Positions 1 through 31,774 of a stretch of DNA of 31,774 nt are shown piece after piece; position 1 is the first letter of the stretch, and each line of letters begins with the position of its first letter. A program made the position numbers and the translations under genes. The DNA lies in contig CAYXSS010000010.1 of NCBI GenBank assembly GCA_964467765.1, positions 1 through 31,774 of the forward strand, given 5' to 3'. Source of the stretch: an uncultured Candidatus Saccharibacteria bacterium. Its GTDB lineage: Bacteria; Patescibacteriota; Minisyncoccia; UBA6257; 2-01-FULL-56-20. The notes under the pieces are model-generated. The model was not told the DNA's origin, made no database searches, and saw only the letters and a program-made list of their open reading frames with translations.

Positions 1-281
1 AGGGCGCAAACGCAAAAAACACCAACGTTGGTTGGTTTTTTTGTTCGCCCTTGTGAGGAATCGAACCGGGAATGGGGTCGGGAAAACGGAAGTTTTCCCG
101 TGGTGGAAATATTAAAACCGCTGGGTTTAAAAAAAATTGTGCTAGCAAAATTTTGTGAGATTCCCCTGGTTGCCGCATGGCAACTCGCTGGTACACAAAC
201 GCAAAAAACTGCCCCTTGGCGGCTTTTTGCGTTCCATGTTTTTTGAGCGGAGAATCGAACGCCGGAACTCTAAACGCGTTA

Positions 282-29394: not shown

Positions 29395-29476
29395 GGGCGG
29401 GTGGCGGAATTGGCATACGCGCAGCGCTTAGAACGCTGTCCCGAAAGGGTTGTGGGTTCAAATCCCACCCCGCCCA
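29395..29476 (+). tRNA. tRNA-Leu, anticodon UAG, type II with a long variable arm; CCA not encoded.
   Basis: Folded by hand. Acceptor GGGCGGG/CCCGCCC; 3-bp D-stem; anticodon stem CAGCG/CGCTG with loop CTTAGAA; variable hairpin CCC-GAAA-GGG; T-arm GTGGG-TTCAAAT-CCCAC; discriminator A. Confidence 0.8.
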
Positions 29477-29619
29477 CGAAAATGCGGGATTTGAACGCCG
29501 GAGCAAAGATTTTCAGCAGAAAATTTTTGCGAGGCGGTGCCCAGACCAAACGCGAGCGACGGCGAGTATTTGAGTCGCGGGCAAATCCCACCCCGCCCAC
29601 GAAAATGCGGGATTTGAAC
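29477..29619 (+). repeat. tRNA-3'-associated element, copy 1. Layout: 20-nt spacer; ~86-nt core (29497-29582) containing a perfect 12-bp hairpin GCAAAGATTTTC-AGCA-GAAAATTTTTGC; then a 37-nt direct duplicate of the tRNA-Leu 3' end plus spacer (29583-29619 duplicates 29460-29496).
   Basis: Seen directly. The core recurs reverse-complemented at 31226-31310 with only 3 substitutions over ~85 nt. Confidence 0.75.
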
Positions 29620-29656
29620 AGGGAGAAGTGGGCAAGCCTTTCTTATAGATAAAAAG

Positions 29657-29681
29657 AAGCCTCGCCGTTGCCGCGAGGCTT
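29657..29681 (-). terminator. Terminator hairpin AAGCCTCGC-N7-GCGAGGCTT with a U-run on the minus strand, for the gene 29711-30031.
   Basis: 9-bp stem. The minus strand is followed by CTTCTTTTTATCTAT. Confidence 0.55.
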
Positions 29682-29710
29682 GCCAGCACTAGAATGCTGG
29701 GCTTTGTGGA

Positions 29711-30031
29711 TTAGTCGAGACCCTCTTCTCTCGCCGTCGCGATCTCTTCGACGTAGGATTGGCGGAGCTCCGCGAATGATGGCCGCTCAAACGGCTCGAA
29801 GGATACGAGACAATCAACCACGAAATTCACGTACGGGTCGTCCGTCGCCTTGGGGAAATCGGAGCCATCGCCAATGGCTTCCTCAATCTTCCGAAGCTGT
29901 TCTTCCGAGAGCTCGTGCGTCACCCGAGGATAGCGTTTCCGCCCCTCATTCTGGTTGTCGTGCGCGAAAGGTACTAATGGTTTTTGGCAGCCTTTCAGAC
30001 GCCGCGCCAAATCTGCTGTTGAAATCCGCAT
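29711..30031 (-). CDS. Hypothetical protein, 106 aa, on the islet; GC-richer than its neighbours.
   Basis: ATG at 30031 preceded by a strong SD (GGAGAAAGGAGGAAGATAAAT). Noticeably higher GC than flanking genes. No recognised domain. Confidence 0.45.
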   Translation of the reverse strand: MRISTADLARRLKGCQKPLVPFAHDNQNEGRKRYPRVTHELSEEQLRKIEEAIGDGSDFPKATDDPYVNFVVDCLVSFEPFERPSFAELRQSYVEEIATAREEGLD

Positions 30032-30228
30032 ATTTATCTTCCTCCTTTCTCCTTGGTAGATTACAGCATATCCAGTAATCACTTGTCAAACGCTCGTAAT
30101 GGCTTGGTAGTTTGGAATGTCGGACAAGCAAGAACCCTTGGAAATCTACGACTTGGCAAAATAATGTGCACGCCTCACGGCAAATAAATAAAATTATCCC
30201 GCGCCTTACGGTGCGGGATGAAAATTTT

Positions 30229-30921
30229 TTACTTGCTTTTCCTTTTGAGGACAATCTGATAATCCAGAGTGTCTTGCTTCAAAGTCTTGTCGCTTCGTTT
30301 CAACATCACTTCTTGGTGACCAACCACGACACCGCCATCGTCAACTACTTCTACAAGGCGGGTGTAATAAGGCGTGTCATAACAGTCGCCGCTCTTCAAA
30401 ATTTGCGCAGCTTCGTAGGAGGTGTTTACGCGTCTTTTGTATTCATCTTTGACGTCTTCAAATACACCGCTTACTCCGATTTTCAAAGACTCTGTTTTTG
30501 CGGAAGCGCTCGTTAACGCCTCAACGGTAGCGGCATAAAGCCAGTAGCGAATTTCGTCTTTCCATTCTTTTCTTTCCACTTTTATCTGCGGAACGCGCTG
30601 GATAAACCTAGTGATGGAATAATTCAGTTCTCCGAGAAATGCACCTTCGTAACCATAGCTTTTGCCAAGCTCATAAATTGTCGATGCTAGCTGGGACTCC
30701 GGACTAACTGATACCGGGTCGAATTTTGAAATAACCAACGAATTAAGAAGGTTGTGCAGCCTGATTCCGATTCCGACAAAAATCTGGTTGTAAAAAAAGA
30801 TCAATGACAGATTGTTTGTTATCTTTCCGGCCGCTTCTTTTGCCAAAACTTCAATCGCATCATCAAGAACATTTCTATCCTGCGATTTTCCATCTGTTTT
30901 TTCGCTAGGAACGTATGGCAT
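30229..30921 (-). CDS. Hypothetical protein, 230 aa, on the islet.
   Basis: Long ORF, soluble, no recognised motif. Confidence 0.5.
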   Translation of the reverse strand: MPYVPSEKTDGKSQDRNVLDDAIEVLAKEAAGKITNNLSLIFFYNQIFVGIGIRLHNLLNSLVISKFDPVSVSPESQLASTIYELGKSYGYEGAFLGELNYSITRFIQRVPQIKVERKEWKDEIRYWLYAATVEALTSASAKTESLKIGVSGVFEDVKDEYKRRVNTSYEAAQILKSGDCYDTPYYTRLVEVVDDGGVVVGHQEVMLKRSDKTLKQDTLDYQIVLKRKSK

Positions 30922-31005
30922 ATTTCCCTCTTTTTGGTTTAATTACCTGCTTTCAAAATACCCCCCCCGATGCGTCTGTCAAGCACGGTACGTGGCCATA
31001 CAAGG

Positions 31006-31079
31006 CAAGTGTTTTTCGGAGACTTGCGGAGCGCAACAGCGCGAGTATAAGAAATTTTTCAGTAAAAAAACTATGCCCA
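31006..31079 (+). repeat. Orphan copy, about 75% identical, of the segment at 25307-25383 (the pilin P2 5' leader region).
   Basis: Hand alignment: CAAGTGTTTT(G/T)CGG(GA/AG)ACTTGCGGAGCGC…GCGCGAG…AATTTTTCAGTAA…. The reading frame is preserved for 27 codons with conservative substitutions, then the similarity ends. Confidence 0.6.
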
Positions 31080-31187
31080 GCAAAACGCCTACCCGACGCC
31101 AACTGGCGAACTCCTGTTTTCCAACACGGTGAGAGATTGGCATTTCTCCCTGACCCCTTCTAAGGTTCAATTCCTCCCAATAAAAAA

Positions 31188-31202
31188 CCACACAGAGTGT
31201 GG
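31188..31202 (-). terminator. Terminator of the minus-strand tRNA operon: CCACAC-UCU-GUGUGG followed by UUUUUUAUU.
   Basis: The minus strand reads CCACACTCTGTGTGGTTTTTTATT immediately after the duplicated tRNA-Lys 3' end. Confidence 0.6.
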
Positions 31203-31203
31203 C

Positions 31204-31337
31204 TTGGTGCGGGCGGAGGGAATCGCCCGCGACTCAAACGCTCGCCGTCGCTCGCATTTGGTCTGGGCACCGCCTCGCAAAAATTTTCTGCTGAAAATCT
31301 TTGCTCCGGCGTTCGATTCCAGTTCTTTTGGAAAAGC
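31204..31337 (-). repeat. tRNA-3'-associated element, copy 2, on the minus strand. Layout: 27-nt spacer; ~85-nt core (31226-31310, reverse-complement of the copy-1 core); then a 22-24-nt direct duplicate of the tRNA-Lys 3' end including CCA (31204-31225 duplicates 31338-31359).
   Basis: Seen directly. Same order relative to its tRNA as copy 1: tRNA, spacer, core, tRNA-3' duplicate. Confidence 0.75.
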
Positions 31338-31338
31338 T

Positions 31339-31414
31339 TGGTGCGGGCGGAGGGAATCGAACCCCCAACTTACGGGTTAAAGGCCCGTTACTCTACCGAT
31401 TGAGTTACACCCGC
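31339..31414 (-). tRNA. tRNA-Lys, anticodon UUU, CCA encoded.
   Basis: Hand fold: acceptor GCGGGTG/CGCCCGC (one G·U pair); D-arm ACTC-AATCGGTA-GAGT; anticodon stem ACGGG/CCCGT with loop CCTTTAA (C at position 33 is atypical); T-arm GGGGG-TTCGATT-CCCTC; discriminator A; CCA. Confidence 0.7.
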
Positions 31415-31435: not shown

Positions 31436-31512
31436 TGGCAGAGGCGGCAGGATTCGAACCTGCAACCCTCGGCTTAGAAGGCCGATGCTCTGGTCCCTTG
31501 AGCTACGCCTCC
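31436..31512 (-). tRNA. tRNA-Arg, anticodon UCU, CCA encoded.
   Basis: Hand fold: acceptor GGAGGCG/CGCCTCT; D-arm GCTC…GAGC; anticodon stem TCGGC/GCCGA with loop CTTCTAA; T-arm GCAGG-TTCGAAT-CCTGC; discriminator G. Confidence 0.75.
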
Positions 31513-31521
31513 GCAAGTTTT

Positions 31522-31598
31522 TGGTGGGCCCACTCGGACTCGAACCGAGGACCAGCCGATTATGAGTCGGGTGCTCTAACCGCCTGAGCTATGAGCCC
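31522..31598 (-). tRNA. tRNA with CAU anticodon, either elongator Met or Ile2/lysidine type; not an initiator (1:72 is G-C).
   Basis: Hand fold: acceptor GGGCTCA/TGGGCCC; D-arm GCTC-AGGCGGTTA-GAGC; anticodon loop CTCATAA; T-arm CTCGG-TTCGAGT-CCGAG; CCA encoded. Confidence 0.7.
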
Positions 31599-31673: not shown

Positions 31674-31774
31674 CTATTTTCTTCTCCTTGAATGGAACGC
31701 TTTATGCACTTCCCGCAGCTCTTTGTTCGTAAGGTGCGTGTAAATTTGGGTTGTCGAAATATTAGAGTGGCCAA
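31674..31774 (-). CDS. C-terminal fragment of a tyrosine recombinase (XerC/XerD/integrase family); the gene continues beyond the window.
   Basis: Minus-strand translation ends …IYTHLTNKELREVHKAFHSRRRK*. This matches the conserved C-terminal Tyr-containing motif (…YTHV…L…V…HP) of tyrosine recombinases. Confidence 0.5.
   Translation of the reverse strand, partial: GHSNISTTQIYTHLTNKELREVHKAFHSRRRK

Follow-up and report, generated by a model that had tools for sequence, protein, structure and literature searches.

Folded miniature elements behind tRNA genes of Patescibacteria carry antisense and sense copies of the tRNA T-arm

A stretch of 31,774 nucleotides (nt) from an uncultured Candidatus Saccharibacteria bacterium (assembly GCA_964467765.1, contig CAYXSS010000010.1), called the window here and used for all coordinates, contains two copies of a short element, one following a tRNA-Leu(UAG) gene on the plus strand and the other a tRNA-Lys(UUU) gene on the minus strand. 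Both are members of a large family of folded miniature elements of about 90 nt that lie after tRNA genes in Patescibacteria (the candidate phyla radiation, or CPR), bacteria with tiny, streamlined genomes, and this family is apparently undescribed so far. Each copy has a conserved core set between an antisense and a sense copy of part of the T-arm of its own tRNA, many cores are preceded or followed by a terminator-like hairpin, and arrays with decayed outer copies occur. We tentatively read the family as a T-loop-anchored miniature integrative element that uses a folded single strand as its recombination site, a reading to which we give somewhat less than an even chance.

The two window copies and the layout of the element

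The features of the two copies and their tRNA genes are as follows.

29395-29477, + strand: tRNA-Leu(UAG) gene (tag), intact, T-loop TTCAAAT, CCA not encoded (ARAGORN, Rfam)
29459-29496, + strand: direct repeat 1 of the Leu copy, made up of tRNA positions 56-73, the CGAAAAT trailer and the antisense segment of the T-arm (repeat finder)
29484-29496, + strand: antisense segment (a') of the Leu copy, GCGGGATTTGAAC, reverse complement of the T-loop and the T-stem 3' strand with one mismatch
29497-29581, + strand: conserved core of the Leu copy, a three-way junction with helices P2 (hairpin hp1, loop AGCA) and P3 (hairpin hp2, loop GACG) (covariance model, 87.2 bits)
29582-29619, + strand: direct repeat 2 of the Leu copy (a2), the tRNA from T-loop position 56 on, the trailer and a second a' (repeat finder)
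31185-31205, - strand: terminator-like hairpin with a T run, closing the Met-Arg-Lys unit 3' of the element
31202-31225, - strand: direct repeat 2 of the Lys copy (a2) (repeat finder)
31226-31310, - strand: conserved core of the Lys copy (covariance model, 89.9 bits)
31311-31335, - strand: spacer of the Lys copy, the mini-hairpin CTTTTCCAAAAG and then a' GGAATCGAAC (31311-31320), reverse complement of the T-loop plus 2-3 nt
31336-31359, - strand: direct repeat 1 of the Lys copy, tRNA positions 56-76 plus AGC (repeat finder)
31339-31414, - strand: tRNA-Lys(UUU) gene (ttt), last of the Met-Arg-Lys unit, T-loop TTCGATT, CCA encoded (ARAGORN, Rfam)
31436-31512, - strand: tRNA-Arg gene (ARAGORN, Rfam)
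31522-31598, - strand: tRNA-Met gene (ARAGORN, Rfam)

The original prediction, made from the letters of the window, had described a core of about 85 nt after both tRNAs with three substitutions between the copies, and this is what we found over the 85 nt, while the hairpin that it took for a perfect one of 12 bp has 11 Watson-Crick pairs and one G-T pair. The direct repeats of the tRNA 3' ends are exact and both begin at T-loop position 56. The Leu repeat measures 38 nt (29459-29496 and 29582-29619), one more than the 37 nt predicted, and the Lys repeat 24 nt, CCA and AGC included (31202-31225 and 31336-31359), in agreement with the predicted 22-24 nt. The core had been placed 20-27 nt behind the tRNA; it starts at 20 nt in Leu and at 28 nt, just outside this range, in Lys. 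The units measure 123-134 bp, the cores end in ..GAGTCGCGGG and the two copies form inverted arms of 117 nt (29487-29603 and 31204-31320, repeat finder) with a complementarity of 90%. Neither copy has a terminator between tRNA and core, which makes them the minority type in the family, and the hairpin nearest to the 3' side of the Leu copy (29657-29681) was called on the opposite strand. Cotranscription with the tRNAs, as predicted, is plausible for these two copies, the Lys terminator lying after the element, but is not general, as a terminator-like hairpin precedes the core in most of the family (see below).

Both sets of repeats are real and behave as repeats in assembly. Logan contig L063 corresponds to window positions 29590-31286 with 1 mismatch, crosses the junction between Lys repeat and core, and stops inside the Lys core at the point where the two cores become identical, while a second Logan contig (L058) stops inside tRNA-Leu. 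These contigs dispose of an assembly artefact, one of the outcomes that the original prediction had named as its own possible undoing.

Across the family, a unit read along the tRNA strand starts with a1, the tRNA 3' part from the T-loop on, which completes the gene, and continues with a short trailer, usually with a terminator-like hairpin, then a', the core and finally a2, the displaced original 3' part of the tRNA, in sense, from about position 57 on and variable in length. Between trailer and a' there is often a complement of the acceptor 3' strand, followed by another hairpin (hp0) and (C)GU. Segment a' has 11-13 nt, in the consensus 4 nt against the T-stem 3' strand and 7 nt against the T-loop. 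The core is conserved in length (85-90 nt), and its consensus reads C-GCC-GGA-(hp1, loop AGCA/AGUA)-GA-GGCG-GU-GCCC-A-GAC-CAAA-(hp2, loop GACG)-UUUG-A-GUC-GC-GGG-(C/A). The origin of the flanks is evident from their match to the local tRNA: in 44 of the 51 copies with an upstream tRNA, the T-loop of that tRNA is reproduced exactly, in reverse complement, by the 7 nt 5' of the core, and the match follows the T-loop variants TTCAAAT, TTCGATT, TCCGATT, TTCGAGT and TTCAAGC. The direct copy always starts inside the T-loop and runs for 7 to more than 50 nt. Pairing is possible between the antisense and sense T-arm copies, and it shuts the core into a three-way junction. The acceptor complement, hp0 and the T-stem complement of some copies, taken together, mimic the layout of a tRNA 5' strand. 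Many T-loops contain TTCGAA, which is its own reverse complement, and an 18-nt palindrome, CCTGCCTGCGCAGRCAGG, sits at the T-loop/T-stem boundary of sense tRNA copies at three places (L047 at about 2850, L013 at about 2660 and at about 7560).

Three other identities were considered for the element and rejected. It is not a T-loop intron or part of a split tRNA, since nothing is missing from the upstream tRNA and copies without an adjacent tRNA have no 5' half in front of them. Nor is it a tRNA gene on the opposite strand, for which ARAGORN found none and where the stems fail to pair, and it has neither the conserved cores of known self-cleaving ribozymes nor Rfam matches to them.

A covarying fold at tRNA genes of Patescibacteria

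The core 20-mer GAGGCGGTGCCCAGACCAAA was searched in one genome per species (185,579 species, 596 Gb) and found exactly at 57 loci, against about 1 expected by chance. All 57 are in metagenome genomes labelled as Patescibacteria, as one of its subgroups or as unclassified, and viral contigs gave no match to the 20-mer. A covariance model (R1) trained on 14 copies from other genomes and run on 58 sequences identified 72 copies, including the two of the window, which reached E values of about 1e-19 and 87-90 bits with a model built only from copies of other genomes. Within 250 nt 3' of a tRNA or transfer-messenger RNA (tmRNA) gene, on the same strand, we located 52 of the 72; among the remaining 20, 11 are cut by or lie within about 300 nt of the end of the stored locus, where an upstream tRNA could not be seen. 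The orientation is always that of the tRNA strand. The same core follows about 20 tRNA types (for Leu, Lys, Gly, Arg, Ser, Pro, Met, Val, Thr, Asn, Tyr, Phe, Ile, Glu, Asp, Cys and Trp) and one tmRNA, and locus L007 has a copy at all five of its tRNAs, while many tRNAs in element-bearing loci and in relatives have none. This bears out the original prediction in its main point, a discrete miniature element 3' of different tRNAs with its own copy of their 3' part, and it is the outcome of the search of related genomes that had been proposed with it. That prediction missed the antisense T-loop copy, the covarying fold, the phylum-wide spread and the other core families, two of them in the window.

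At the tmRNA gene (L024:2667-3192 together with L032:1-64), the element copies the T-arm of the tmRNA, from which it seems that the T-arm and not tRNA identity is decisive. Another of the loci has a tRNA called by ARAGORN with a four-base anticodon (cgcc) and no identity assigned (L056:2729-2801).

No Rfam 15 family, including YrlA, ribozymes and omega RNAs, matches the element. Rfam 15 at permissive thresholds returned only tRNAs as passing matches in the window, the best overlap with an element being tmRNA_permuted at 18.7 bits against a threshold of 47, and at gathering thresholds only tRNA and tmRNA were found in 15 other loci. Full-text searches of the literature on Patescibacteria and CPR yielded no description of it and one related paper, on group I introns in anticodon loops.

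The fold of the core, closed by the T-arm copies, is under selection, and on the tRNA-sense strand. Covariation was measured on the alignment of the 72 copies as fitted to the model, a procedure that favours structure, and the margin is very large: double-sided changes occur in 36 of 37 pairs, 92.7% of the cells are paired, none of 500 shuffles reached the observed values and covariation scores 0.543, where controls with slid partners do not exceed 0.108. The clamp formed by a' and the sense arm (P1) is 86% paired. The preferred strand is indicated by 43 G-U pairs versus 14 A-C mismatches in the core helices, by U-G in place of C-G in P2 and by the summed hairpin energy (-1004 kcal/mol in sense versus -850 kcal/mol in antisense). 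A secondary structure backed by covariation is what is expected of a structured noncoding RNA, but the strand and covariation evidence fits either RNA or folded single-stranded DNA, and DNA versus RNA folding parameters did not separate the two. The tRNA-sense strand is the lagging-strand template when the tRNA gene is co-oriented with replication.

If the selected molecule were RNA, the element could be a cis-acting structured RNA in the 3' trailer of the tRNA that serves the host, with a role in tRNA 3'-end processing or stability or as a tRNA-like minihelix acted on by RNase P, RNase Z or the CCA enzyme. In that case, the T-arm of the tRNA or the sense copy would be the partner of the antisense segment, and the element would be inherited with its tRNA, with occasional gene conversion of the core. 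Of all explanations this one best accounts for the conservation, with its strong covariation, conserved unpaired nucleotides and favoured sense strand, and it agrees with the invariable position on the tRNA strand, with the window copies that lack a terminator before the core, with the tRNA 5'-strand mimicry in some copies, with the copies at all L007 tRNAs and with compensating changes between orthologous copies (L011 and L034). It has difficulties with the terminator-like hairpins and T runs that lie between tRNA and core in 31 of 47 copies, with no conserved promoter seen, and with the many tRNAs in the same loci and in relatives that do without an element. The decay of outer array copies and the exchange of unrelated cores at the same position also argue against it, as does a core subtype independent of the tRNA, and function alone leaves tRNA-specific flanks around a shared core unexplained. 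We give a trailer RNA a modest chance of being the right explanation.

Proposed insertion at the T-loop, arrays and turnover

In the integrative reading that we favour, a unit made of a tRNA 3' part, a trailer with terminator, an antisense arm and a core would enter the tRNA gene at the T-loop, where the incoming 3' part and terminator would rebuild the gene and the original 3' part would be left behind the core. The terminators have the layout expected of such a gene-rebuilding element, as they stand before the core in the 31 copies just mentioned and after a2 in 19 of the 47. The moving form would be a small single strand of 120-200 nt; we propose a single-stranded form because this length is too small for a double-stranded circle. 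On it, a' would pair with the sense T-arm copy and recreate a double-stranded, T-arm-like site beside the core, at which a trans-acting recombinase, plausibly one of the Xer-like tyrosine type, could swap strands with the T-loop of the tRNA gene, as happens at integron attC sites and the attP(+) hairpin of the CTX phage. New units would land beside the tRNA, and older ones would be pushed outward and decay.

Arrays, gene-carrying versions and decayed outer copies all fit repeated insertion at the tRNA. Tandem or mixed arrays are present in L047, L055, L045, L033, L053 and the window, and in those that we compared (L053, L002 and both window loci) an intact copy adjoins the tRNA and decayed ones lie farther out. 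Other, unrelated cores occupy the same frame, with an antisense T-arm ending in ..TCGAA at the left and a sense T-arm copy at the right. These are X2 (L002, L033, L045 and L053), X3 (L035 and two in the window), X4 (L013) and further different cores in L029, L040 and L021. Upstream of elements in L057, L015 and L013, the acceptor 3' strand of the local tRNA is joined to a conserved motif, GTTCNAAC-ATCCTCCAC..., with no detectable tRNA nearby, and this may be the right end of another T-loop-inserting family.

The further elements of the window are listed here.

46-215, + strand: X3-type element after a tRNA whose last 8 nt, AGGGCGCA, are window positions 1-8; its core starts CGGGAATGGGGTCGGG
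249-268, + strand: truncated main-family copy with only GGAGAATCGAAC, which resembles a', and the initial 8 nt of the core, GCCGGAAC
29620-29638, + strand: possible X3-like stub, AGGGAGAAGTGGGCAAGCC, 3' of the Leu repeat, from comparison with X3 copies by eye only
30985-31184, - strand: older element of X3 type beyond the Lys copy, opening with the decayed antisense T-arm GGGAGGAATTGAAC, followed by CTTAGAAGGGGTCAGGGAG...

The first 215 nt of the window show the main-family layout with a different core, including a perfect 21-nt complement of the 3' end of that first tRNA after its terminator hairpin (46-66). The truncated copy follows a second terminator at about 196-236; this terminator begins with CAAACGCAAAAAAC, a repeat of positions 8-21. 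The truncated copy accounts for the border motif that had been reported to recur at 252-268: the recurrence is exact for the 15-mer GAATCGAACGCCGGA at 252-266, not for 16 nt, and consists of the T-loop complement and 8 nt of core. Judging by its letters, 29620-29638 behind the Leu copy resembles the start of an X3-type core and is probably what remains of an older element that later received the new core, although the tool alignment of the two right flanks left this piece unpaired with the X3 stretch. Older X3 remains at both window loci suggest that successive insertions push older ones outward; both tRNA loci would already have held X3-type elements.

For the near-identical cores of the window with their tRNA-specific flanks, the best account would be local copying or gene conversion between the two inverted copies, 1.6 kb from each other, with only the core affected. 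The Leu repeat spans exactly from position 56 to the end of the antisense arm that also precedes the older stub, which indicates that the core alone would be new there. This cannot be extended to the family, as within-genome homogenisation is ruled out as a general rule by a mean core identity that is the same (0.743) within and between genomes, with a subtype independent of tRNA type or genome. The cores of L010 (Val) and L033 (Gly), for example, are 97% identical in different genomes.

Such copying could be taken further, to a spread that needs no dedicated enzyme, by template switching or gene conversion at T-loop microhomology, with quasi-palindrome correction shaping the inverted flank. 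The Leu copy suits this idea well, being a core plus a 38-nt repeat that runs from position 56 to the end of a pre-existing a', with its putative donor, the Lys copy, in inverted orientation 1.6 kb away; the self-complementary TTCGAA of many T-loops would suit it too. It leaves unexplained the conservation and covariation of the core across a phylum, the consistent 11-nt antisense segment bounded by conserved sequence and the common junctions of unrelated cores, and we hold it to be quite improbable.

Some units carry genes. In L002, L018, L025 and L052, the a2 copies match a tRNA 2-5 kb upstream, and between the tRNA and the distal core there are, in L052, genes for CsoR, a copper ATPase, DsbD/HMA and a cupredoxin, followed by core and sense copy; in L018, an alcohol dehydrogenase; and in L025, an rve transposase of an insertion sequence (IS). 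At tRNA-Asp, variable gene sets (L052:749-5736, L018:5541-7661 and L043) are bordered by a conserved left motif, TTTTCCAGTTCCCACCGAC, and a conserved right one, TGGTATATAAATAT...CAGTTCCCACTTCG plus the acceptor strand, and these may be a separate cassette family.

A retroelement similar to short interspersed nuclear elements (SINEs) could also be considered, in which readthrough from the tRNA promoter would yield core RNA and a nick in the T-loop of a tRNA gene would prime its reverse transcription. The products would be an exact 3' junction, target duplications that vary in length and inverted target copies made by snap-back. The right junction fixed in the T-loop, the direct repeats of 7 to more than 50 nt and the orientation tied to the tRNA agree with it, and the conserved RNA-like fold could be a recognition feature for reverse transcriptase. 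Long palindromes centred on terminators (L033, L003, L021 and window 1-66) look as if terminated transcripts had primed themselves. Against it, group II introns are reported to be absent from Patescibacteria (PMC13011429), and no reverse transcriptase was present in the window, the other element-bearing loci not having been screened for one. Transcription would be restricted by the terminators that precede most cores, the presumed snap-back copy is broken by hp0, and the duplicated 3' parts contain genomic trailer, so that mature tRNA was not the source. Altogether we consider a retroelement improbable.

Several findings weigh against an integrative element as well. T54 and T55 are missing from the main-family copy that follows the core, where C56 is also often replaced by A, and this is odd for a conserved crossover region. 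The unpaired nucleotides of the core, with tandem G-A motifs, are conserved across the phylum, more as in a functional RNA than in an att site, and the orthologous copies at tRNA-Gly-CCC in L011 and L034 differ by compensating changes, from which we conclude that elements persist vertically under constraint. Just two tyrosine-recombinase open reading frames (ORFs) turned up in 443 kb of element-bearing loci, neither linked to an element, and the Xer-like gene that had been suggested as a cognate integrase, whose C-terminus is encoded at 31674-31772, is outside the element. The model explains neither how a1 and a' come to match the new tRNA on retargeting nor why hp0 is positioned exactly at the acceptor-stem/T-stem junction. 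Finally, neither a strictly orthologous empty site nor a free or circular form was found, and the collections contain no close relative of the source genome. Exact-protein look-ups of the SPFH neighbour and of the DUF6899 protein encoded between the two copies gave only short contigs of run SRR5161795 with 0-1 mismatches to the window, and a homologue search with SPFH returned only the SPFH protein itself. A metagenome scan with the tRNA-Leu body gave one distant element-free tRNA. The element-free tRNA-Leu(tag) loci, in L059 and, directly before DUF6899, in L062, are all distant; that element-free tRNAs exist in relatives nevertheless counts in favour of insertion.

The elements could also be a new class of mobile nucleic acid, made of a core scaffold and two tRNA-specific arms (antisense at 5' and sense at 3') that would be rewritten from the target at each insertion. 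This would amount to a self-reprogramming, T-loop-directed insertion, guided by RNA or by folded single-stranded DNA and run by an enzyme of Patescibacteria; we give this reading a modest chance.

If the elements are mobile, they represent a route of insertion directed to the T-loop of many tRNAs without a linked integrase, with a new signature, a direct and an inverted target copy around a folded core, and cargo genes, for copper resistance among others, also appear to travel along this route. Should they be RNAs, they form a new and widespread class associated with tRNA genes. In both cases, they break assemblies and mimic att sites and tRNA fragments, and the covariation model is ready for annotating Patescibacteria genomes.

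Known systems and the bracketed genes

In their apparent mode of action, the elements come close to two known systems, tRNA-integrating elements and folded single-strand att sites. For the former, Williams 2002 and Pavlovic 2004 are said to describe tRNA targeting and a class of tyrosine integrases with crossover in the T-loop, and integrase-less derivatives exist as cis-mobilizable elements (CIMEs). The common features are the insertion at the 3' part of a tRNA or tmRNA gene that is rebuilt by a 3' end borne on the element, the displaced 3' end as a direct repeat beginning in the T-loop, as in attL/attR pairs, and the tandem accretion at one tRNA. Unlike them, the present unit is only 120-200 bp, with no integrase inside and no cognate one in evidence; one core family is found at about 20 tRNAs instead of one fixed attB, the core is a covarying three-way junction, and there is an antisense copy of T-loop and T-stem.

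Direct repeats of a tRNA 3' end around an insert, and two copies inverted around two ORFs, could also be read as the decayed attL/attR scar of a classical tRNA-integrating prophage or island, or as a composite transposon with the 1.6-kb islet between the copies as its cargo. This is already contradicted by a single 85-nt core with identical boundaries at about 20 tRNA types, by viral contigs without the core 20-mer, by inverted "terminal repeats" that are tRNA specific at their ends and by the genes of the islet, a pair conserved elsewhere in a housekeeping context, and we take it to be very unlikely indeed.

Folded single-strand sites with the recombinase supplied in trans are known from the attC sites of integrons and from attP(+) of the CTX phage, used by XerCD (integrative mobile elements exploiting Xer, IMEX). 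Likewise, the elements have two half-sites in inverted orientation, separated by about 90 nt, whose pairing on a single strand would make the double-stranded site; strand specificity and arrays are present and the integrated order is inverted site, spacer and a hybrid site joined to the target. The differences are the target, a tRNA T-arm instead of attI or dif, a spacer that is highly conserved and structured and paired arms that carry target sequence; the present elements are also known from sequence alone. Of the attC R-box consensus RYYYAAC/GTTRRRY, only AAC/GTT coincide with the T-loop.

With MITEs (miniature transposable elements with inverted repeats) and the repetitive extragenic palindromes and bacterial interspersed mosaic elements (REP/BIME), they share being small, noncoding, multicopy, hairpin forming and intergenic and breaking short-read assemblies. 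Their inverted repeat is derived from the target and not encoded by the element, the duplication varies in length from a fixed start in the T-loop, where a MITE has a target-site duplication of fixed length, and position and orientation are strictly tied to tRNA genes. The elements fall outside integrase-bearing elements and MITEs and probably outside attC sites as well.

The omega RNAs of TnpB/IscB (IS200/IS605) read their guide from flanking DNA, and IS110 has bridge RNAs. A conserved scaffold with short locus-specific segments that match the insertion site is common to these and to our elements, here for both strands, while the lack of Rfam matches, the mutual complementarity of the two segments and the target duplications set the latter apart, and no TnpB, IscB or IS110 genes were among the ORFs scanned in the window and three other loci. 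Functional tRNA trailers and tRNA-like signals, such as the 3'ETS-leuZ sponge and mascRNA, are similarly structured RNAs 3' of a tRNA in one transcription unit, and acceptor and T stems are mimicked in some of our copies; most of these, however, lie beyond a terminator, and the elements have a T-loop that is fully paired instead of being folded as one, are multicopy and turn over.

The genes between the two window copies (29711-30921, - strand) code for a DUF6899 protein (230 amino acids [aa]) and a small acidic protein. The original prediction saw them as an islet flanked by the copies as inverted repeats. They are ordinary genes that lie between the copies through the convergence of two tRNA units, which also produces the inversion. 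DUF6899 has 781 homologues with 55-68% identity across Parcubacteria lineages, and in L060 and L061 its small partner again comes next, in the company of TsaD, DnaG and genes of that kind, with the repeats absent. Finding the same pair without repeats in housekeeping neighbourhoods excludes it as accessory cargo or part of a composite transposon, and the two ORFs were also rejected as a mobilising enzyme, having no matches to phage (PHROG) or defence (PADLOC) families and being conserved genes of housekeeping contexts. DUF6899 and its partner are a conserved Parcubacteria pair of unknown function, not cargo. The rest of the window is ordinary chromosome of Parcubacteria type, with genes for ClpB, RNase Y, phosphoglycerate mutase and O-antigen-ligase-like and type IV secretion pilin-like proteins.

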